In this document: one piece after another, positions 20,901 through 31,456 of the stretch | Numbering within the stretch: position 1 is the stretch's first letter | Layout of the letters: each line of letters starts with the position of its first letter | From: an uncultured delta proteobacterium | GTDB lineage: Bacteria > Myxococcota_A > Polyangia > Polyangiales > Polyangiaceae | Length of the DNA: 64,000 bases | Direction of reading: 5' to 3' | NCBI GenBank assembly: GCA_963716725.1 | Contig: CAVQUB010000021.1 | Coordinates: 128,001-192,000, forward strand | Program-made: the position numbers and the translations under genes | The notes under the pieces: model-generated | What the model saw: the letters and a program-made list of their open reading frames with translations, nothing else | The model's database searches: none | Told to the model about the DNA's origin: nothing

Positions 20901-22012
20901 CCAGCGCCGCGTCGATCTGCGCCGAGAACTCTCCGATCAGCGGCGGCTCGCCAGCGCCGGCCATCGGGAAACGGTACTGCGCGAGCAGCTTGCCGGACTC
21001 GCGCCGCACCGGCAGCCACTCGATGTACTCGACAACCACCGTGATGGTCGCGCCGCTCGCAATGGTCGGCAGGTGCCCGCGCACCCAACCTTCGCCGGCC
21101 CATTCGAGCAACGCGGGGCCCTCGGGAGCGAGCTGCACCGATTCGCGGTGCGCGAGGGCGATCTTGCCCTCTTGCAGGTCTTCGTCACGACCCCAAGCAA
21201 AACGCGAGACGATGGCGTCCGGCGGCAGCGCCATGCGGAAGTCGCCGCGAACGCCGCTGCTCCCGCCGTTGAAATAGGTGGTGGTGACCCGGGTCTCGGC
21301 GATCTCGGGCTCGAGCTTCGCGCTCACGTCCAACGCACGAATGGTGAGCGGCGAACCCGGGTCGCCGGGCTTCGAACCGAGATTCTGCACCCCAGATTTC
21401 ACCGACCGCACGCCGCGGAGGTCCGGCCGCGCCCCAGGGAGCCGCGAGCCCGCCCGTCCAGTCGTCGAAGGCCTTCTCCGGGCGGACGCTGACGTTGGCG
21501 CCTTCGATCAAGGCGGACTCGCCCGCGCGCACCTTGTGCTCGCCGTTGCCGGCGCTCACGACAATCTCGTCGTTGGCAGCGTAAACCCGAGCAGGACCTT
21601 CGCGCCGGTCAAAGCCGACACGGGCAGCGCCGGGACGCACCTTCACGTCGCCGACGGAAATCTCGGCGCGAGCCCCGACCACCCCCTCGACGAACAGTCG
21701 GCCGCTCTCCAGGCTGATCTTCGCGTCGTCGACGCTGATCTTCGTCGAGCGGTCGATCAGCACCACCGTGCCGTCGTCGAGGCGGATGCGCGCTCGACCT
21801 TGTGCGTCGGTCTCGACGCGCTGCCCGGGTGCGATCCGTACGAGACCGCGCCGCTCCCCCTCGTTCACGTTCACGCCCGGATGAACCACCGACAGGTCGG
21901 CTACGGTCACGCCGCGTTGAATGGCTCTGGGCCGCGCGATGAATACGACGCCGGCAATGATGACGCCGAGCACGACGACGATCGCGAGCGTCCGCAGGAT
22001 CTTCTTAGCCAC
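17993..22012 (-). pseudogene. FecR-VIT-vWA-TonB_C(AgmX/PglI-like)-TPR protein of about 1339 aa, broken by two compensating frameshifts (about 21390 and about 20690); either a pseudogene or an assembly error
   Basis: ORFs 21185-22012, 20227-21411 and 17993-20671 align in sequence with the intact upstream paralog; MIDAS DTSGS; GGATDLG; first and last pieces share a reading frame. Confidence 0.8.
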
Positions 22013-25000
22013 GGGTCACCTCCCCGGTGCCGAGATTGAAACGGATGGTGGGTGGACCGCCGCGCTCGAAGCGAACCGGCAGCTTGATGATCTTCTCGCT
22101 CTTGCCGAGCTCGTCGAACACGACCGTGAGCGTCAGCTCGGCACCGAGCCGCGCGGCGGCCTCGACGTCGCCCTTCTCGATCCGGATTTCCACCCACCGA
22201 GCCCCCTTCGAGGGCATGCGCGCCTGTGCGATGCCCAAGGTCACGTCCCCTTCGGACGCCGGCATCGCTGCACCGAGCGCGTTGGTGTAGAGCACGGGGT
22301 GCAGCTCGGGATGGGACCAGGTGAGCGTCACCCGCGCGCCTCGGCCCGTCTTCGCGCCCTCGGAAGCCAGCACACGTTCCGCGCGCGCGGCGAGATCCTC
22401 GGCCTCTTGTTCCCGCTTGCCTTCGCGGGCAGCCAGGCGTCCCCACGCGAGGAAGGTCGCGGCGAATGCCCGCGAAGTTGCGGCGGGGCCCGAATCGACA
22501 TCGGGGGCCCCGGCGCCGTGGCCCTTCTCGGTCCAACGCACGGCTGCTTCGACCTGGCCCTCGCCCTCGGCGGCCGCGGCCAGCAGGAGCGCGACGCTCG
22601 AGTCGTCAGGCGTGATCGTCGCCAACGTCTCGTATTGTCGACGCGCGTCGGCGAACCAACCGTGAGCTCGAAGTAGATCGCCGAGGCGGCGACGCGCCAC
22701 TGGATCGTCCGGCGCGAACTCCACGATCTCGCCGAAAGCGCGACGTGCGAGGCCCTCGTTCTCGGCCTTGCCCTTCGGCTCCTTCATCGACGCGGCGATG
22801 CGCAGGTAGAGTTCGCCAATGGAGGTGCGGACGTGCGCATCCGCATCGGGCCGCGCGCGCAGGCGCTCCGCGAAGTCCGCAGCTCCCGAGAAGTCCCCGG
22901 CATCCTCCAGCGCGTCGAGAAGACGAAGCGCCAGCGGGAAGTCGTCGGGCCACTCCCTCACGAGCACTCGCAACTTTGCCGCGCGCAGGCTCGGATCCTT
23001 GGTCTCGGACAGCAACTTCTCGAGCATGCCCGGGTCCATGCTCTTCAGCCCGAGCGCAGCGTGCAGCTCGCGCATCTGCTGCGCCGTCTTGATGCGAGCC
23101 ACAATGCCTCGGTAGAGCGAGTCGGCGGCGGTGGCGTCGTTCTGCATCAGCTTCCAGAGCCCGACGCGCATCTGCACGCTGCCGAGGGCGTCGAGCATCA
23201 GCGAGAGCAGGCGTCGTCGCTCGGTCCAGCTCGGCGCTTCACAGCCCCGAAGCGCCGTCTGATAGACGCCGAGCACACCGCCCGGGCTGCCCGCCATCTT
23301 CGAGAGACGCTCGCGCCACAGGGTCACCCGATCCGAGAGCGGGAGATCCGCCGCGGCGCTGCAGCGGATCACGAAGCGAGGGATCACGTCGAGCCCGACC
23401 ACGACGAAGGGAGCGTCGATCTTCTCGGGCTTGGTTCCCCCACCGCCGCCGGGCGAAAACATGATCGGGTAGCTGACGGTGACGATACCGCCTTCGGGCT
23501 GCGGGAAGCTGAGACCGGTGAACGCCGCAACGACGCAGGCGACCACGCCGGAGTCCGGAACGTCCGAATCCCCATTCCTGGCGTTCGCCACCTCACCCTG
23601 AGCGTTGATCACGAAGCGAACGGCGACGCGGCCCTCGAGGTTCGGGTTGCGTTGGAGCCCTTGCTCGTAACACAGGCGAAAACGTCCGAAGTTCTGCCGC
23701 ACGATGCGCTGCACGACCTCCGGCGGCAGCTTTCCGGTGACCTGAGTCGCGCCCATGCGCACCGACGGCACCGACGTGGCGTGAGCGCCGCCCAGGCGCC
23801 CGTGCCCGGAGCCGAAGCCTTGACCGGATCCAGTCCCAGCGCCTTTGCCGATGGTGCCGATCGAACCGAGTCCGATCCCTTCGCCACGACCGCCGCCACC
23901 TTCACCGATGCCGCTCAGACCGAGACCGCCCGCACCGGAAGCATCCCCGATCTGGTCGCCCCAAGTGTTGCCTTTCGCCGACTTCGTCTCGGGAGCCTCG
24001 CTGGGTTTGTCCTCCCCGGCCGCCGGCGCGCGTTCTGCCTTGGCGACGGGCGCGGCCGCCGTCGCGGCGGCCTCGGGCGCCGGCGCGGCCGGCGGCGATG
24101 CGGCCAGCGAGTCGTCTCTCCCCCAAGGCGCCGTTGGAGCGCTCGGATCCCCCCCCGCACCGGTGTTCAAGAGGCCGATCATCCCAAACTCGGAGCTGTC
24201 CTTCAGGGCCTGCTGACGGGCGATGTGAGGGTCCGCGTTGTCCCGGGGTCCTTCCACGCCGTAGCGCTTGGCCGAGGCGCTCGCGGGGCGCCCCATCGAT
24301 CCCTCTTCACCCTTGGCGCGGGTGCCAGTACCGCCTTCTTTGTTGTCGGACTTTGCGGTCTCCTCGGCCACTTCTTCCCGCTCGCGCTCACGCTCGAGGT
24401 CTTCCTCCGTCATGCGCTTGCGCCGCTCTTCGGCCAGCTCCCGCGCGGTTGGTACGTAGTAGGACGTGACCGGAGTGATGATGCCAAAGCGTGAGCCGAC
24501 GTCGACCATGGCGGCCCTGCCCGCGCGCTCGCGGAGCAACTCGCCGAGCCGTGCCTCGGCCCAGCGACGCCGAAGGTCACCCTGATCGTCGAGGGCCCGC
24601 GGATCGAGCGGCAGCTCTTTCTTGCCCTCCCGGGTCGTCACCGTGATCTTCCGGGGGGTCGCGCCTGCGGTGCGACCGACCACGATCACGGTCTCGTCCG
24701 CTACGAGCGCGCCCGAACCCCGGGGATAGATGCGCTCCACGCTCTCGCCGAGACTGATCTCGGTTCCGAGCCAGGCCGGCCGCTCGGCACGCTCGAGCAC
24801 TGCGAGACCCGCACGAGCCGCCGACGCCGCGTCGTCGAGTCGGCTCGCGAAGCCGCCGCTGGCGAGCCCCGCGAGCAACGCCATGTCGACGTCGCGCCCG
24901 ACGCCGAGCGAGAAGACCCGCGGCGGTCGCGGCAGCTTGCTCATCTTCTGCTCGAGATCCTTGAGGGTGATTTCGCCGACGGTGGGCAGACCGTCGCCGA

Positions 25001-26759
25001 TGTAGACCACGACTCCGCGACGCGCCGGATCGAGCTGGCTTGCCGCCAGCGTGAGCATGCCGCCGAGATCGGTGGCTCCGCCGCGAGACAGGCTGGCGAG
25101 CGCCGCGGAGTAGCGCTGACGCACGGCCGTGTCGATCTTCGCGAGCCCGGTCAGGTCCGGAAGCAGCGGCCGAAGCGATTCGGCGCCGGCCCACACCACG
25201 GCCCGGTCCTCGTCGCCCAGGTGACTGAGCAATCCCATGGCCGCCGCCCGCGCGAGGGCCATGCTCGACGCATCGTTGGCCGCCGACGCATCGACGACAA
25301 TGGCGAGATCGAGTCCGCCGGCTTGCACCGGCAGATCCGTCGCGCGCAAGGGGACGAGCACGTAGCCCACCTCGCCGATCGCGGTCTTGTTGGCTTCGGT
25401 GCGTGCGTCCGGCGCGAGCACTTCGAGATCCGGAGAGTGCTTGGCGTGATATGCGCCCGCAGCGCTCACTCCGTCGTCGAACAGCTCAACGGAAAGATCC
25501 GCGCGCGGAACGTAGTCTTGCGCGCGCACTATCACTTCGGTGCCCTGGCGTGTGCCGGCCATGCCGACCCGAACGTCCTTCGCTCGCGCCTTCGCGAGCT
25601 CCACCTTGATGGTCAGTTCTTCGATCACGGGCAGCGAAGCGTCAGTGCCCTCCGCTGCCATCGGATACACGTAGTGGCGCCGCTCCCCTCGCTTCCCGTT
25701 GCGCGGCAACCACTCGGTGTAGCGCACGACCACGCGCCGCGACTCGCCGGGGCCAATCGGGTACAGCCGCGCGCGATAAGCCCCGGGACCTTCCCACTCG
25801 AGCAAGGCGGGATCTTCGGTCGATCCGGCGTAGACGTTGGACTGATACTGCGCGGCCGCCGCTGCGCTCTCCTTGACTCGGCCCCACACCACCTCGCCGT
25901 CGCGATCGACACCAAAGCGATGGATAGAAGCGCCCTCGGGCGATCGGAAGCGGTAGATGCCTTCCACCGTGGCCGAGGTCGGGTTGAAGAAGCGTTGGTC
26001 CACCTCCGTCACCGCAAAGTCGCCGTCCACGCTGACCCGCACGTCGAGGCGCTGGATGGCGAGCGGAAAGCGCGGCGAGCCGACGTTGCCCGGCGGACGT
26101 GCGCCCACGGTGCCCACTCCGAAGGGGGCAGGAGTCGCCACTGGATCGGTGGTCGCGAGCCCGCCGGTCCAGTCCTCCCAGACCTTCACGGCCTCGAGGG
26201 TGGGAGCGCCGTCTCGCTTCGCGAGCAGTCGTTCCCCGGCACGCGCGCGCACGGTGTCACCGAGACGCACCTCTCCGTCGAGCACATAGGCCTCGGTGGT
26301 GCCGTCCGCGGACACGTCGAGGCTGGCGCGGACCTTGGCGAGCTGCAGCTTGCCGCTCGGCACCTCGATCTCCGTCGCGCGGCTCACGGGCGAGTCGACG
26401 AAGATCCGTCCGGACTCGAGCTTCACGCCGTCTGCGTAGACCACCAGCTCGGCCGGCCCGCGCACCAGGAGGGTGGCCCCGGCGTCCCGTCGCAGCCAGG
26501 CCAATCCTCCCGGTTGCACCTTCACCCGGGATCCATCGACAAGGCGCTCCCGTGGATAGGGATCGCGCTCTTTCTCGTCGGGCAGCGTGACGAGCACCGC
26601 GCGCCGAACGGTGCGGAGCTCGGCCCAAGTTTGGCTGCGCGGCGCCAGCGGACGTTCGCGGCCGCCGCAGGCAAAGGTGGTGACCACCAGCAGGAAGAAA
26701 CCAAACCAGACGCCTAGACGCCTGGCGATGTGTGGACGCATGCTGCGTTGCCAGACCAT
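22005..26759 (-). CDS. Giant lipoprotein-like FecR-VIT-vWA-Gly-rich linker-TonB_C(AgmX/PglI/GltG-like)-TPR protein
   Basis: GGAGG RBS before ATG 26759; TFAC lipobox; VIT-like VTEVDQRFFNP...DPALLEW; vWA GGATDLG, YIGDG; GKLPPEVVQRIVRQNFGRFRLCYE...FPQPEGGIVTVSYP; TPR region. Confidence 0.88.
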   Translation of the reverse strand: MVWQRSMRPHIARRLGVWFGFFLLVVTTFACGGRERPLAPRSQTWAELRTVRRAVLVTLPDEKERDPYPRERLVDGSRVKVQPGGLAWLRRDAGATLLVRGPAELVVYADGVKLESGRIFVDSPVSRATEIEVPSGKLQLAKVRASLDVSADGTTEAYVLDGEVRLGDTVRARAGERLLAKRDGAPTLEAVKVWEDWTGGLATTDPVATPAPFGVGTVGARPPGNVGSPRFPLAIQRLDVRVSVDGDFAVTEVDQRFFNPTSATVEGIYRFRSPEGASIHRFGVDRDGEVVWGRVKESAAAAAQYQSNVYAGSTEDPALLEWEGPGAYRARLYPIGPGESRRVVVRYTEWLPRNGKRGERRHYVYPMAAEGTDASLPVIEELTIKVELAKARAKDVRVGMAGTRQGTEVIVRAQDYVPRADLSVELFDDGVSAAGAYHAKHSPDLEVLAPDARTEANKTAIGEVGYVLVPLRATDLPVQAGGLDLAIVVDASAANDASSMALARAAAMGLLSHLGDEDRAVVWAGAESLRPLLPDLTGLAKIDTAVRQRYSAALASLSRGGATDLGGMLTLAASQLDPARRGVVVYIGDGLPTVGEITLKDLEQKMSKLPRPPRVFSLGVGRDVDMALLAGLASGGFASRLDDAASAARAGLAVLERAERPAWLGTEISLGESVERIYPRGSGALVADETVIVVGRTAGATPRKITVTTREGKKELPLDPRALDDQGDLRRRWAEARLGELLRERAGRAAMVDVGSRFGIITPVTSYYVPTARELAEERRKRMTEEDLEREREREEVAEETAKSDNKEGGTGTRAKGEEGSMGRPASASAKRYGVEGPRDNADPHIARQQALKDSSEFGMIGLLNTGAGGDPSAPTAPWGRDDSLAASPPAAPAPEAAATAAAPVAKAERAPAAGEDKPSEAPETKSAKGNTWGDQIGDASGAGGLGLSGIGEGGGGRGEGIGLGSIGTIGKGAGTGSGQGFGSGHGRLGGAHATSVPSVRMGATQVTGKLPPEVVQRIVRQNFGRFRLCYEQGLQRNPNLEGRVAVRFVINAQGEVANARNGDSDVPDSGVVACVVAAFTGLSFPQPEGGIVTVSYPIMFSPGGGGGTKPEKIDAPFVVVGLDVIPRFVIRCSAAADLPLSDRVTLWRERLSKMAGSPGGVLGVYQTALRGCEAPSWTERRRLLSLMLDALGSVQMRVGLWKLMQNDATAADSLYRGIVARIKTAQQMRELHAALGLKSMDPGMLEKLLSETKDPSLRAAKLRVLVREWPDDFPLALRLLDALEDAGDFSGAADFAERLRARPDADAHVRTSIGELYLRIAASMKEPKGKAENEGLARRAFGEIVEFAPDDPVARRRLGDLLRAHGWFADARRQYETLATITPDDSSVALLLAAAAEGEGQVEAAVRWTEKGHGAGAPDVDSGPAATSRAFAATFLAWGRLAAREGKREQEAEDLAARAERVLASEGAKTGRGARVTLTWSHPELHPVLYTNALGAAMPASEGDVTLGIAQARMPSKGARWVEIRIEKGDVEAAARLGAELTLTVVFDELGKSEKIIKLPVRFERGGPPTIRFNLGTGEVTRG

Positions 26760-26934
26760 ATCGCGCCTCCGATGTTCCCCGGGGGGGCGACTATACGCCC
26801 GGGGATGGGGAAGCCGACGCCGCATTCGATCAATCTGCCGTGGCTTGCCCCATCCATTCTCAGGGCTCTGACCCGCTGGCCCGCGATTGATTGGCTCTTC
26901 GCTGGGTCCTGGGACAATTCGGCCCGGCTGCCGC

Positions 26935-28284
26935 CTACTCCTTCGGCGGCCGCACGCCGTACTTCGTCGTCATCGGCGGCTGATCGGGCGGCGCTTCGAC
27001 GGCGTACTCGGCCACCGACGGTGGTTCGTCCCCTTGGGGCGGCGGCTCGGGCGGCGGTTCGACAGCGTATTCCTCGACGGACGGAGGCTCGCCGGGGAAG
27101 GGATCCGCGGTCGGCGCCGCGGGGGGCGGGCCCTGAGGCTTGTCGCCCGCGCAACCGATGCCAAAGGCGGCTAGCAACGCCGCCGGCGCCAGCGCGAGGG
27201 GCGCGTACCGACGCTTGCTCTTCACGAGTGATCGCGCGTCGAGGGTCGCGACGCGGTGATAGCAGAAGGGGTTCTCACTGCCACCTTCGCAGGTGCGCAT
27301 ACTGAAGCAGCCGCCTCGGCAGATGTCTGCGTGCTCGCAGGTCCGACAGAAGCCCGTGAGGCTGTCCGTGGAGAAGCTCCGGTTGTACGAGAACGCACCT
27401 TCGCGGTGCCAGATGTCGGCGAGCGCGTGCTCCGCCAGGCTGCCTTCGGTCTCCTGGGTCGCTTGGAGTGAGAGGCAACCCTTGACGCTGCCGTCGGACT
27501 GGATGCCGAGGTGACGGCATCCCGCGAAGCAGCCGACCCAGCACTCGACCGGCGTCGACCGATGGCGGCGCAGCGTGGACTCGTATTTGCCGTAGTAGCC
27601 GATGTTGTTGGCGATACGAATGTTGATCGGCGAGCGTTCGACCAAGCTGGCGAGGGCCGGGATCAGCTGGAGCAAGTCCTTGGGGTCGAGCTGTTCGGAG
27701 CGGTGCTCGAGCAGGTTGCCCATGGCCGCGCCGAGCTGCAGCTGCCAGACGTACACCTTGCCGGCCAAGAGCTCTTCGATGGCGTCGAGCTCCCGCACGT
27801 TGCGCTTCTGCAGAGTCGTGACCACGCCGACGGGCGGACCGGCAGCGTGACAAGCTTCGATCAGCGCCATCACCCGCTTGAACGAGCCTGGCAGGCCGCG
27901 GTGTCGATCGTGGGTGGCTTCGAGACCGTCGAGGCTCGCCGCGATACTGACCAGCCCCGCCTCTTTGGCACGGCGCGGCAGCTCTTTGTCGGCACGGGCG
28001 GCGTTGGTGATCATGTTCACGGCGATGCCGCGTCCGGCAGCTTCAGCTCCCACGGCCTCCCAGTGCTTGGACAGCGTGGGCTCGCCGCCCGAGAGCGTGA
28101 GGGTGCGACAGCCGAGATCTGCGAGCTCGTTCGCGATCTCGAGCAATCGCGGCCGACCGAGCTCGTCCGGCCGCGGGTTGCCCGCCCGCGATCCGCAGTG
28201 ACCGCAGCGCAGGTTGCAGGCCAGCGTCAGCTCCCAAGTGCAGCTCTTCGGCACGTACCCCAGGCCGTCCACGATCTCGCGCAT
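26935..28284 (-). CDS. Radical SAM/SPASM peptide-modifying enzyme (PlpX/splicease-like) with a fused lipoprotein-like Pro-rich tail
   Basis: WELTLACNLRCGHCGSRAG (CxxxCxxC), SGGEP, WQLQL, NIGYYG, GCFAG...GIQSDGSVKGCLSL, FCRTCEHADICRGGC, NPFCYHR; GGAGG RBS. Confidence 0.9.
   Translation of the reverse strand: MREIVDGLGYVPKSCTWELTLACNLRCGHCGSRAGNPRPDELGRPRLLEIANELADLGCRTLTLSGGEPTLSKHWEAVGAEAAGRGIAVNMITNAARADKELPRRAKEAGLVSIAASLDGLEATHDRHRGLPGSFKRVMALIEACHAAGPPVGVVTTLQKRNVRELDAIEELLAGKVYVWQLQLGAAMGNLLEHRSEQLDPKDLLQLIPALASLVERSPINIRIANNIGYYGKYESTLRRHRSTPVECWVGCFAGCRHLGIQSDGSVKGCLSLQATQETEGSLAEHALADIWHREGAFSYNRSFSTDSLTGFCRTCEHADICRGGCFSMRTCEGGSENPFCYHRVATLDARSLVKSKRRYAPLALAPAALLAAFGIGCAGDKPQGPPPAAPTADPFPGEPPSVEEYAVEPPPEPPPQGDEPPSVAEYAVEAPPDQPPMTTKYGVRPPKE
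26944..27090 (-). repeat. Three degenerate peptide repeats in the radical SAM tail: EPPSVEEYAVEPP / EPPSVAEYAVEAP / QPPMTTKYGVRPP
   Basis: Visible in both the translation and the DNA. Confidence 0.85.
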
Positions 28285-28360
28285 CTCGTCGCCTCCTCGG
28301 CCTCGAGGCTAACGCCTTCCCGCGAGGCCCGAGCTGACCGAGGTCATGTCGACCGTCGGC

Positions 28361-29161
28361 TCAACGCCGCGGCTCGGCGCGCTTTCCGAGCACCTTCGCC
28401 ACGCCCATCGCCCGAAGCATTGGTCCCTCGAGACTCGGAATCAGCTGGCGCAGCGCCAAGAGTGGGCGCACGGGTCCCGCCGTCACGAGCACCTCACCCT
28501 TGCCCCGGATCACCTCGATCACCGCTTGGGCGACGGCATCCGGCGATACCTCTCGGAAGGCTGCCGGCGCCCGGAGCCCCGTGTCCGCCCACATGCCCGC
28601 ACCCGAGACGAAGCCGGGGCACACGACTCCGACATGAACCCCCGTCCCGTGCAACTCCACTTCGAGCGACGAGCTGAGACCCACGAGGCCGTGTTTGGTC
28701 GCGGCATAGACCGAGTTGTAAGGAGTCGCAGACTTGCCGGACATCGACGAGACGTTTACGATCACGCCGCTTCCACGGGCGATCATCGCCGGAAGCGACG
28801 CCCGCGTCAGCTCGATGGGCGCCACCAGGTTGATCTCGATCTGCGCGCGCACCTCGTCCTCGCTTTGATCGACCAACAGCTGGGTGACCTCGATCCCGGC
28901 GTTGTTGACCAGGATGTCGATGGCGGCCGCCTCCTTCGAGAGTCGTGCTCGATCCTCGGCCCGCGCGACGTCGGCCGAGACCACCTCGACCCGGACGCCC
29001 AGCGCGCGACACTTCTCGGCGACCTGATCGAGCTTCTCCCGGTCACGCGCCGCGAGCACGAGCGCGATGCCTTCGCGCGCCAGCCGCTCGGCAATGTGCA
29101 GGCCGAGCCCCCGTGACGCGCCTGTGACCAGCGCGCGCTGGCCTCTGAGATCCGCGGACAT
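28361..29161 (-). CDS. SDR family oxidoreductase
   Basis: TGASRGLG, NNAG, NVSS, YAATK. Confidence 0.93.
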   Translation of the reverse strand: MSADLRGQRALVTGASRGLGLHIAERLAREGIALVLAARDREKLDQVAEKCRALGVRVEVVSADVARAEDRARLSKEAAAIDILVNNAGIEVTQLLVDQSEDEVRAQIEINLVAPIELTRASLPAMIARGSGVIVNVSSMSGKSATPYNSVYAATKHGLVGLSSSLEVELHGTGVHVGVVCPGFVSGAGMWADTGLRAPAAFREVSPDAVAQAVIEVIRGKGEVLVTAGPVRPLLALRQLIPSLEGPMLRAMGVAKVLGKRAEPRR

Positions 29162-29248
29162 GCTCCGCCGCATGCCACGGGACCAAAGTGCGCGAAAGCC
29201 TCGTCGCCCGTATTTCGGTATAGTCCTCGATCGGGGGGCAAGCGCCTC

Positions 29249-31456
29249 ATGCAGGACACCACTCGCCTCGTTCTATCGGTTTCGGCGGCGCTGACCAGCG
29301 CCGAAGAGCGGGACGTCGACCGGTCCATCGAGCTGGCGCTGCGGCAGAGCGCCGAGCTCACCGGTGCCGACCGCACCTACGTCTTCCTGCTCTCGGACTC
29401 GGGCACGCAGATCAGCAATACCCACGAGTGGTGCACGCCGGGCATCGAGCCGGCGCGCGACCAACTGCAGCGCTTGCCGCTCGACGCATTTCCCCTTGCG
29501 TTCCGCGAGTTGCTCGCCGATCGCGATCTGGTCGTGCCCAAGGTGCTCGAAGCCCCGCCGGGACCCGATCGGGAGGAGTGGATCCGAGAGGGCATCCGAT
29601 CGCTCTATTGCACCCCCCTGCGCATCCACGACCAGACCGTCGGGTTTCTCGGCTGCGACTGGGTTCATCGCGAGCAAGCCCTCGACGACCCCACTCGAGA
29701 GCTGATCCGACTCACGACGCTGTTGGTCGCCACCGCTGTGACGCGGCGGCGAGCGATGCGCCGACTCGAATACAAGAACGACTTCGAGGCGCTCGTGCTG
29801 CGGATCGCCTCGGAGTTCATCAACCTGCGTGGTGAGCCGATCCGCGCGGCGGTCCACGAGGCTGTCGCCGACATCGCGAAGTTCGGCGAGTTCGAAGGCG
29901 CGTACCTGTTTCGCTTCCGGGACGATGGACGAGCGCTGCCGGAGTACCTGTGGCGGTCGCCGCCCATCTCGATGCCGGGTCCAGAGCTGGTGAACCAGCC
30001 CGATCCAGGGCGATTTCGCTGGTGGCGCGACCGCATGCGCGCTGGTCGGACCCTCACGCTCAGGAGCCTCGCCGACATCCCTCCCGAGCAGGTCGAGATC
30101 CGGAAGGTCCTCGCCGAACACGGCGTCGCGGCGGCCATCGACCTTCCGATCAGAATCGGTGGAGAAGTCTGGGGGTTCGTCGGATTCGTCTCCGCTCGCA
30201 GCCCGCGGCGATTCGACGCCGACGAGGTCCAGTTGCTCGAGCTGGCCGCCCAGACCCTGGCCGGAGGCATCGGCCGCGCTGAGGCCAATCGCGCCGAGAG
30301 CGAGCTCGCGGCGCAGCTGCTGCAGACGCAGAAGATGGACGCCGTCGGGCACCTGGCCGGAGGTGTCGCGCACGACTTCAACAACCTGCTCGTGGTCATC
30401 ACGCTTTCGCTGCACGCCGCCCGCCGTTCTCTCGGAATGAACCAGGGACAGACCGAGCAGGCGTTGGACGAGATCCAGAAGGCAGCGACCCGGGCGACCA
30501 AGCTCACCAAGCAGCTGCTCACGCTCGTTCGTCAGGCTCCGACCAGCGTGACCGTCCTTGATCTCAACGCCACGGTCGAGGAAGTGCTCTCGCTCGTCCG
30601 CCGGGTCCTGCCCAAGTCGGTCAGCGTGCGCTTCGCACCCGCAGCGCAATCGTTGCCCGTCAAGGCCGACGCGACCGAGATCGAACTCTGCCTCCTGAAC
30701 CTGTGCATGAACGCGCGCGATGCGATGCCGGAGGGCGGCGAGATCACGCTGAGCACCCGTCGGGTGGTCTTGACGCCGGAGGCCGGGCTTCCGCCTTGGT
30801 CCCGGCCTGGGCCTCACGTCTTGCTGGAGGTCAATGACACCGGCCACGGCATGGACGGCGAGACGGTTCGACGCTCCTTCGACCCATTCTTCACCACCAA
30901 GGAGCCGGACAAAGGCACCGGGTTGGGGCTGGCGGCGGTCTGGAACATCGTGAAAGGACATGGCGGCGTCGTGCGCGTCGAGAGCGAGCCGGGCGCCGGC
31001 AGCACCTTCTTGATCTACCTGCCCGAGGTCACCTCCGCCGCCGACGCCCTCCCTCCGAGCTCACCGGACGCTTCCCCGGGCGGGCACGAGACGGTGCTGC
31101 TCGCGGAGGACGACGAGATGGTGCGGCACAACGTCTCCGGCGTACTGCGCGGGGCGGGCTACCGGGTGCTCGAAGCGAAGGACGGTCAAGACGCCGTTGG
31201 TCTGCACTCCCGCAACGTGGGCAGCATCGATCTGATCGTGGTCGATGCGGTGATGCCGAGGAAGAGCGGCCTGCAAGTGTATCGCGAGATCTCCGCGCGC
31301 GACGCGAGAGTTCGAGTCTTGTTCACCAGCGGCTACAGCCGCGACGTATTCCCCGAAGAGTTCTTCGCCTCCGGCAAGCACGATCTGATCGCCAAGCCGT
31401 ACTCACCCGAGGCGTTGCTCGCCGCCGTTCGCGCTGCGCTGACACGCGCGGGTTGA
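29249..31456 (+). CDS. Cytoplasmic hybrid histidine kinase (GAF-GAF-HisKA-HATPase-REC)
   Basis: SNTHEW GAF; LAGGVAHDFNNLL; NARDAM; DTGHGM; PFFTTK; GTGLGLA; REC DAVMP and AKPY. Confidence 0.93.
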   Translation: MQDTTRLVLSVSAALTSAEERDVDRSIELALRQSAELTGADRTYVFLLSDSGTQISNTHEWCTPGIEPARDQLQRLPLDAFPLAFRELLADRDLVVPKVLEAPPGPDREEWIREGIRSLYCTPLRIHDQTVGFLGCDWVHREQALDDPTRELIRLTTLLVATAVTRRRAMRRLEYKNDFEALVLRIASEFINLRGEPIRAAVHEAVADIAKFGEFEGAYLFRFRDDGRALPEYLWRSPPISMPGPELVNQPDPGRFRWWRDRMRAGRTLTLRSLADIPPEQVEIRKVLAEHGVAAAIDLPIRIGGEVWGFVGFVSARSPRRFDADEVQLLELAAQTLAGGIGRAEANRAESELAAQLLQTQKMDAVGHLAGGVAHDFNNLLVVITLSLHAARRSLGMNQGQTEQALDEIQKAATRATKLTKQLLTLVRQAPTSVTVLDLNATVEEVLSLVRRVLPKSVSVRFAPAAQSLPVKADATEIELCLLNLCMNARDAMPEGGEITLSTRRVVLTPEAGLPPWSRPGPHVLLEVNDTGHGMDGETVRRSFDPFFTTKEPDKGTGLGLAAVWNIVKGHGGVVRVESEPGAGSTFLIYLPEVTSAADALPPSSPDASPGGHETVLLAEDDEMVRHNVSGVLRGAGYRVLEAKDGQDAVGLHSRNVGSIDLIVVDAVMPRKSGLQVYREISARDARVRVLFTSGYSRDVFPEEFFASGKHDLIAKPYSPEALLAAVRAALTRAG

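Follow-up and report, generated by a model that had tools for sequence, protein, structure and literature searches.

A radical SAM/SPASM enzyme gene of a Polyangiaceae genome with a tyrosine-motif tail as its candidate substrate

Might a single bacterial gene encode both a peptide-modifying enzyme and the peptide on which it acts? The question is raised by an open reading frame (ORF) at 26935..28284 on the minus strand of a 64,000-nucleotide stretch of DNA (the window; positions 128,001 to 192,000 of contig CAVQUB010000021.1, GenBank assembly GCA_963716725.1) from an uncultured member of the Polyangiaceae. A preliminary description took this ORF to be a splicease-like radical S-adenosylmethionine (SAM) enzyme of the SPASM type, fused to its own probable substrate. 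Spliceases install β-amino/ketoamide residues in ribosomal peptides, and the resulting products are protease inhibitors; the enzymes themselves are in development for use in protein engineering. From the comparisons described here, we put at about 60% the probability that the gene joins enzyme and substrate in one self-contained, spliceotide-type fusion, whose tail would be spliced and then exported, possibly with lipidation.

Layout and conservation of the fused gene

The source genome is a 7.9-Mb assembly of 35 contigs, 84% complete, whose close relatives are metagenome-assembled genomes of the Polyangiaceae/Myxococcales. As the preliminary description had it, a single uninterrupted frame (449 codons plus stop) runs from the radical SAM/SPASM core through what we read as a signal-anchor into a tail with tyrosine motifs; all of the parts that follow lie on the minus strand. 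The core (residues 1–344) contains a Radical SAM domain at residues 18–171 (27772..28233; Pfam PF04055, 77 bits against a cut-off of 29.5, E = 2.4e-21), which includes the CxxxCxxC motif of the SAM-binding 4Fe-4S cluster (C23, C27 and C30; 28195..28218), and a SPASM region at residues 252–344 (27253..27531). The latter is a seven-cysteine domain for two auxiliary clusters (C252, C270, C313, C316, C322, C326 and C341), and matched Pfam PF13186 over residues 252–317 with 31.1 bits, against a cut-off of 21.5.

Beyond the core, a linker helix and basic stretch, VATLDARSLVKSKRRY (residues 345–360; 27205..27252), is followed by a hydrophobic segment that ends in a lipobox-like cysteine, APLALAPAALLAAFGIG-C378 (residues 361–378; 27151..27204). 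Residues 354–378 consist of VKSKRRY, the 17 apolar residues of APLALAPAALLAAFGIG and Cys378; judged by its sequence, this succession of KSKRRY, apolar run and cysteine mirrors the n-region, h-region and lipobox of a bacterial lipoprotein signal, here located 350 residues from the N-terminus. The 71 residues after Cys378 (379–449; 26938..27150) form a proline-rich, acidic tail, presumed to be the exported substrate or core region. Its three 13-residue repeats were found as claimed: EPPSVEEYAVEPP (residues 399–411; 27052..27090; Y406-A407), EPPSVAEYAVEAP (residues 420–432; 26989..27027; Y427-A428), which was also compared with homologues, and QPPMTTKYGVRPP (residues 435–447; 26944..26982; Y442-G443). 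They hold EYAV, EYAV and KYGV, i.e., two Tyr-Ala sites and one Tyr-Gly site. The earlier account of the tail was right about its proline content and its repeats, but it overlooked the basic/hydrophobic/Cys378 segment ahead of them. Because that segment implies that the tail is exported, it changes the likely biology of the gene.

Homologue counts here refer to the 121 best homologues, in which a protein was scored as fused when its tail had at least 60 residues and contained an apolar 15-mer. At least 74 of the 121 were fused and 41 had tails of fewer than 60 residues; of the remainder, three combined a long tail with a segment that was a little less apolar, and three were not parsed. In every one of the 74 fused proteins, the 12 residues ahead of the apolar segment contained one to four Lys/Arg and no Asp/Glu, and a cysteine stood between −2 and +5 from the end of that segment. 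When 62 fused homologues (41–98% identical to the window's protein) were aligned, the invariant columns included the three cluster cysteines, the seven SPASM cysteines and Cys378 (62/62 in each case). A PROSITE-type lipobox pattern fitted the conserved cysteine in 51 of the 62, the window's protein not being among the 11 that failed, and the uncharged run preceding the cysteine had a median length of 18 residues.

Past this cysteine the tails vary freely in sequence and in length (60–263 residues), except for Tyr-Gly, which occurred 311 times in the 74 tails against 52.0 expected from shuffling each tail. The residue following the 377 tail tyrosines of the 62 aligned homologues was Gly in 72%, Ala in 10% and Tyr in 8% (the YYG form), while position +2 was Val, Ile, Met or Leu in 72% and position +3 was Pro in 47%, giving the consensus x-Y-G-[VIML]-P-P. 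Y406, Y442 and G443 were each kept in at least 90% of the 62. Tyr-Ala occupies some sites in the window's subclade (P0048 has no Tyr-Gly and five Tyr-Ala), and in a protein 96% identical to that of the window (P0002) the first repeat reads KYGI in place of the window's EYAV. These counts bear out the expectation that homologues would keep the tail together with its Y-G/Y-A motifs.

The stretch was also present in contigs of public sequencing runs from several studies, covering biofilter, sediment, wastewater and groundwater. Four runs, each from a different study, supplied contigs that span the junction of core and tail, and these contigs contained no stop or indel in frame that would split the two; their sole indel, at 26910, lies beyond the stop codon. 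Within the ORF they carried 22 substitutions, of which 18 were synonymous, four missense and none a stop, and seven of the eight natural substitutions at residues 351–445 were synonymous. This predominance of synonymous changes, both in the whole ORF and at residues 351–445, indicates that this is the frame in which the tail is read and that the tail is subject to purifying selection. The fusion, kept across 41–98% identity, found on one side of the tree described below and with 18 of 22 substitutions silent, is held under selection.

The design is not confined to close relatives of this genome. A relative at E ≤ 1e-40 was found in 146 genomes of a 401-genome sample of the phylum, paralogous clades included. 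Among 27 loci from other genera (L014–L040, taken from among the best-scoring matches), 17 were fused, nine were unfused and one was cut by a contig end, so that the fused design likely marks a sizeable, unstudied class of myxobacterial envelope molecules.

The tails of a second fused clade (L018–L040, P0065–P0120) carry plain P[DE]YG[IV]PPD repeats plus Cys-rich modules of the form C..VCCxC[DE]YG[IV][IL]P[DE]EV[WY]..CC, with the terminus CC[DE]CDYGxPPPP[EQ]CC. Such CCxCxYG...CC modules would fit an oxidizing, extracytoplasmic destination; their cysteines might form disulfides, bind metal or enter thioethers.

Relatives of the enzyme and of the tail

The core had been likened to enzymes of the PlpX/TIGR03913 type. 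In searches of NCBIfam the best matches were TIGR04103 (nif11-class peptide radical SAM maturase 3, PlpX-type; 246.3 bits) and TIGR03913 (GDL motif peptide-associated radical SAM/SPASM maturase; 244.1 bits), both with twice the scores of the next matches, TIGR04133 (127.8 bits) and AhbD (121 bits). The likeness therefore holds in so far as these two families are the nearest, but their cut-offs are 725 and 591.75 bits, respectively, and neither was reached. A search of the source genome with the TIGR04103 profile gave 246.5 bits at the fused gene, and ten other fused homologues had similar family scores, with no model matching their tails. Membership of TIGR03913 also asks for adjacent DUF1843/GDL precursors, and no small gene adjoins the fused gene. 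A suggested kinship with TIGR04133 enzymes and their TIGR04134 lipoproteins did not hold up, since the core scored 128 bits against a TIGR04133 cut-off of 425 and the tail had no TIGR04134 match at E ≤ 0.01; nor did any other NCBIfam model match the tail above its cut-off.

An IQ-TREE phylogeny of 54 cores placed the window's protein in a Myxococcota clade of 26 fused and 18 unfused proteins, with a Shimodaira-Hasegawa-like approximate likelihood ratio test (SH-aLRT) value of 95, and all of the fused rows fell on one side of a branch with a support of 84. The Myxococcota clade was sister to a clade (support 89) containing the named families and two paralogues of this genome. Contrary to what the preliminary description would lead one to expect, the window's protein stands beside the named TIGR04103/TIGR03913 members and not among them. 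The named-family members in this tree came from plasmid records (a Nostoc TIGR04103 enzyme, two Azospirillum TIGR03913 enzymes and one from Aureibacter), and its outgroups were four long-branched radical SAM proteins of the same genome; experimentally proven spliceases and TIGR04133 members were not included. In a FastTree phylogeny of 135 cores, fused proteins formed two large clades, of 50 and 31 rows, and unfused ones another two; the deep order in this tree was not settled. Taken together, the family scores, which are the best available yet below cut-off, and the sister-clade position indicate that the nearest described relatives of the enzyme are the tyramine spliceases, but that it belongs to none of TIGR04103, TIGR03913 and TIGR04133. 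A sequence search of the PDB matched only SkfB and PqqE, with no splicease structure among the matches, and a protein atlas yielded only unnamed or generic radical SAM clusters, mostly from Myxococcota.

What, then, is the tail? Functionally, a spliceotide is defined by x-Tyr-Gly sites and by the loss of C8H9NO (135.07 Da) at the tyrosine, which leaves an α-keto-β-amino residue. Sites of the x-Tyr-Gly type occur once in the window's tail, beside two of the x-Tyr-Ala type, and abundantly in the tails of its homologues. Spliceases are described as excising a tyramine equivalent at x-Tyr-Gly (PMC11414181, PMC10533398), and the splice tags of PlpA are given as ...PIRPLYGLPI (PMC10533398, Table 1). 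The Nif11 precursor encoded beside the Nostoc TIGR04103 enzyme ends in ...ALYGLPPELF. The tails share Y-G-hydrophobic-P-P with both the PlpA tags and this precursor.

Related enzymes also carry the same type of tail as a separate, adjacent gene. In the source genome (C8:228635-229998; L002/L045), an 85-residue protein consists of a Zn-ribbon, RRR, a transmembrane (TM) segment, GIGC and AYGMPPEDP..., and the stop codon of its gene overlaps the start of that for a 385-residue, paralogous PlpX-like radical SAM protein (500 bits to TIGR04103). The pair recurs, at 80% identity, in a genome from the same genus (L046), and the 85-residue protein, used as a query, found matches in 13 of 31 genomes of the same bacterial family. 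Four of seven further loci (L046, L049, L050 and L052) had one to four tandem precursor genes beside a radical SAM gene, with repeats including MYGGPP, PVYGAP and PMYGMPAP; of the other three, one (L047) had a precursor gene with no radical SAM gene within 3.2 kb, one (L048) had a radical SAM gene with no precursor recognized by pattern, and one (L051) had neither. The radical SAM proteins of these split systems scored 421–500 bits to TIGR04103. Split precursors of this Zn-ribbon-TM-Cys-YG form, accompanied by PlpX-like radical SAM proteins, are undescribed so far.

The TIGR03913-type enzymes of Azospirillum and Aureibacter (L042, L043 and L044) end in a C-terminal CxxC...CPHC Zn-ribbon, and this is the pattern of the N-terminal Zn-ribbon in the split myxobacterial precursors. 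Two other small genes, at L016 (2606-3535, minus strand) and L017 (973-1470, plus strand), are convergent with unfused radical SAM genes of another family. Their products have a helical N-terminus (MDP..LKA.L..LC..LD), an apolar segment, a cysteine and Tyr-Gly sites, with acidic DxDxDGxxDC repeats that carry EYGAP or AYGAP.

The preliminary description had also stated that no separate precursor gene, and no gene for a recognition element (RRE) of RiPPs (peptides made on the ribosome and then modified after translation), was visible nearby. This agrees with our findings: the gaps to the two neighbouring genes are 76 and 109 nucleotides, which leaves no room for either, and at the fetched loci of other genera no neighbour was conserved. 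Across 31 loci, the only recurring frames were the radical SAM gene and its shadow frames. The claim of an enzyme and a multi-site tyrosine-motif tail in one gene likewise agrees with the conservation of the two as one frame among homologues. Because the tail matches the splicease motif, because the same module occurs as a separate gene beside related enzymes, and because nothing else is conserved nearby, we consider it likely that the tail is the enzyme's substrate. That the reaction is tyramine splicing is a closer call, on which we lean only slightly towards the affirmative.

Proposed mechanism and competing explanations

If the gene is an enzyme-substrate fusion of the spliceotide kind, the enzyme domain would act in the cytoplasm on Tyr-Gly and Tyr-Ala sites, whether in its own tail or in the tail of a molecule next to it. 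The likeliest reaction would be excision of a tyramine equivalent to give α-keto-β-amino (ketoamide) residues. The hydrophobic segment would then carry the modified tail across the inner membrane, and a further step, suggested by the invariant Cys378, would be lipidation and release of the tail by Lgt and LspA, with the enzyme left behind; the genome encodes LspA and Lgt, both above cut-offs. Export followed by lipoprotein-type processing is a tentative proposal, to which we assign somewhat less than an even chance. The product would be a lipid-anchored envelope peptide with several ketoamide sites, which might act as a protease inhibitor by analogy with known spliceotides. Because those peptides are reported to inhibit serine and cysteine proteases via the ketoamide (PMC11626197), a tethered protease inhibitor is a reasonable guess. 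The fullest version of this scheme, in which the enzyme serves as the RiPP leader, Lgt/LspA as the leader peptidase, and the product is a "lipo-spliceotide" with a lipidated N-terminus and ketoamide warheads tethered to the envelope, is doubtful.

Several observations weigh against this scheme. The enzyme scores far below both splicease-family cut-offs and lies outside the clade of named families, and it is possible on these grounds that it catalyzes a different reaction. In N-terminal lipoprotein signals the cysteine falls within about the first 35 residues, while here it is residue 378 of 449, and we know of no case in which LspA was shown to cut at an internal lipoprotein signal. The topology is awkward, in that a cytoplasmic, oxygen-sensitive enzyme must act before export, or else modify freshly synthesized molecules in trans. 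Two of the three sites in the window's protein are Tyr-Ala, and evidence that spliceases accept Tyr-Ala was looked for and not found. DYG is a common site type in the homologue tails, and a DYG in RcsA is reported to be left unmodified by its own splicease (PMC11626197). Finally, an AlphaFold2 (AF2) model built on the 62-row alignment (mean predicted local distance difference test score, pLDDT, 81.5; most of the core above 90) put nearly all of residues 389–449 below 50 and docked no tyrosine motif, whereas for PlpA, PcpA and RhaA, AF2 is reported to dock XYG in the active site (Richter et al., PMC11414181). A complex prediction of the core (residues 1–352) with the tail (378–449) gave 0.29 and 0.02 against a mark of 0.32, with no controls, and speaks neither for nor against docking.

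The most serious competitor accepts the tail as substrate and assumes another radical modification of the tyrosine motif, such as a cross-link, a Cβ modification or, in the Cys-rich clade, a Cys-Tyr link. It draws on the low family scores (246 against 725 bits and 244 against 591.75 bits), on the position in a sister clade and not within the named families, on the replacement of Tyr-Gly by Tyr-Ala in the window's subclade (completely so in P0048), and on the cysteine that adjoins the motif in the second fused clade (CCxCDYG). However, Y-G-hydrophobic-P-P is identical with proven or annotated splicease cores, and the split systems of the same family pair MYG/VYG sites with radical SAM proteins at 421–500 bits to TIGR04103. 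We regard another chemistry as unlikely, although it deserves to be kept in mind.

Less probable still is the explanation that the C-terminal part is a mere membrane anchor followed by a disordered periplasmic spacer or binding motif, with the substrate of the enzyme encoded elsewhere. The undocked tail of the AF2 model would fit this, and so would the fact that low-complexity regions rich in proline and acidic residues are common in envelope proteins of these bacteria, e.g., in the 1606-residue neighbour described below. It leaves unexplained, however, why Tyr-Gly should be the sole conserved feature of the tails (311 against 52) and why tandem genes for the separate module stand beside PlpX-like radical SAM genes, and no other candidate substrate gene is conserved nearby.

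We consider it improbable that the hydrophobic helix is instead a built-in activating helix, comparable to PlpY or to the RhaA leader, in a cytosolic protein that modifies its own tail. There is a precedent in that a splicease is reported to be activated by a helix attached to its C-terminus (PMC11414181), and AF2 predicted a single long helix at residues 342–373, running through the basic and apolar stretches and leaving the core. However, its pLDDT was only ~62, and the segment is uniformly apolar, has Lys/Arg without Asp/Glu ahead of it, and ends in small residues and an invariant cysteine, which is the layout of a signal and not that of an amphipathic docking helix. Moreover, the split precursors carry the same segment after a Zn-ribbon.

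The idea that separate genes for a radical SAM enzyme and a small lipoprotein were merged by a sequencing or assembly error, or that an internal start is the only source of the tail, can be dismissed. A GTG codon (V354) does precede the basic stretch, and one 121-residue database protein (P0122) begins at an internal Met. However, homologues from many assemblies, with identities as low as 41%, have the same open frame, the contigs of four studies lack an indel or stop, and V354 has no Shine-Dalgarno-like sequence upstream and is not conserved among homologues. The start of P0122, at M329, falls within the SPASM domain, and its contig is only 2.7 kb long, which identifies it as a truncated gene call. 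P0122 was also the only match when short stand-alone relatives of the tail were searched for.

Known systems and neighbouring genes

The fused gene resembles known spliceases (PlpX/PcpX with PlpY, and the binary systems RhaX, RcsX and RasX) in being of the radical SAM/SPASM type, in the x-Tyr-Gly-hydrophobic-Pro motif and in having several sites per substrate, and it resembles the binary systems in that a Y protein is absent (PMC11414181). It differs in that spliceases have a separate Nif11, NHLP or DUF1843 precursor, whereas here the candidate substrate sits on the C-terminus of the enzyme. It further differs in having an internal signal-anchor and lipobox cysteine in the place of a leader/core junction, in its Tyr-Ala sites, in its sub-cut-off scores and sister-clade position, and in having no transporter or protease gene adjoining it. 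The split Zn-ribbon-TM-Cys-YG systems combine the same basic/hydrophobic/Cys/YG-P module with a related radical SAM enzyme, but do so in separate genes with one to four tandem precursors; there, a Zn-ribbon N-terminus replaces the enzyme, and the radical SAM protein is nearer to TIGR04103. The TIGR04133 radical SAM/SPASM protein, which is paired with the lipoprotein TIGR04134, is alike in the idea of such an enzyme working on a lipoprotein, although the partners are separate genes there. A mention of TIGR04134 in PMC11611037 concerns C-terminal domains of the type IX secretion system and is irrelevant here.

An enzyme and its core also share one polypeptide, and act autocatalytically, in borosins (OphMA-type) and plant burpitides (PMC7878506), but those rely on an N-methyltransferase and a BURP cyclase, whose chemistry is unrelated, and have no membrane or signal segment. 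Engineered fusions of a leader helix or of PlpY to the C-terminus of a splicease are reported to be active enzymes (PMC11414181); these PlpXY and RhaX-leader fusions are likewise self-sufficient through a C-terminal extension, but they are man-made, and the extension is an activating helix and not a substrate. In the literature searched we found no natural splicease-substrate fusion and no lipobox-linked RiPP; prior description is possible, since the search did not cover Scott et al. 2022 (Chem 8:2659), which reportedly sorts spliceases into types. A 2023 review of RiPP leader removal does not mention signal peptidases or lipoproteins.

If the gene is indeed a natural one-gene unit of enzyme and substrate, no smaller splicing system would be known, the unit would offer a ready engineering scaffold, and the borosin logic of an enzyme carrying its own core would extend to radical SAM chemistry. 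A lipo-spliceotide, if real, would be the first natural fusion of a radical SAM enzyme with its precursor and the first RiPP class of the lipoprotein pathway, within the literature searched, and it might serve myxobacteria in protecting their surface from proteases. The internal lipoprotein signal raises the question of how an oxygen-sensitive cytoplasmic enzyme is timed against the export of its own tail, and a second question is whether a RiPP leader can be removed, and the lipid attached, by housekeeping Lgt/LspA.

One weak match of the signal-anchor and tail region (26938-27237, minus strand) was to NF058595, a putative "lipo-invert" C-terminal anchoring domain; with 16.3 bits (cut-off 37; E = 0.0093), it was set aside as compositional. 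NF058595 may cover further proteins in which a segment resembling that of lipoproteins lies close to the C-terminus. Within 26700-29400, neither a sigma-70-like promoter nor an intrinsic terminator was found, and no transporter or protease gene stands beside the fused gene.

Just upstream of the radical SAM gene is a short-chain dehydrogenase/reductase (SDR) gene (28361-29173, minus strand), and an SDR gene is placed likewise at a paralogous locus, L003 (2630-3445, minus strand). Identity between the two SDRs is a mere 33%, and the pairing is absent at L013, whose radical SAM protein is 81% identical, and at more distant loci. The SDR was rejected as part of the system, and its occurrence beside the radical SAM gene in the window and at L003 is probably due to chance, though a role as a ketoamide reductase is conceivable. 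Both the SDR gene and the gene on the other side were kept only in the closest of the fetched relatives (L009, L010 and L012).

That other gene, directly downstream (22005-26825, minus strand), encodes a 1606-residue protein with a lipobox-like N-terminus, VIT and VWA domains, a Gly/Ala-rich spacer and TPR repeats. It matched the AgmX/PglI C-terminal (TonB-like) domain with 88.5 bits (cut-off 40) and is GltG-like only in part (148 bits against 650). It was rejected as a partner of the fused gene, its synteny being limited to L009 and L010, with a distance of ~5.7 kb in L009. Divergent from the SDR-radical SAM pair lies a gene for a 735-residue hybrid sensor kinase (29249-31456, plus strand) with a GAF-like N-terminus, HisKA/HATPase domains and a receiver, which is syntenic in L009 and L010.

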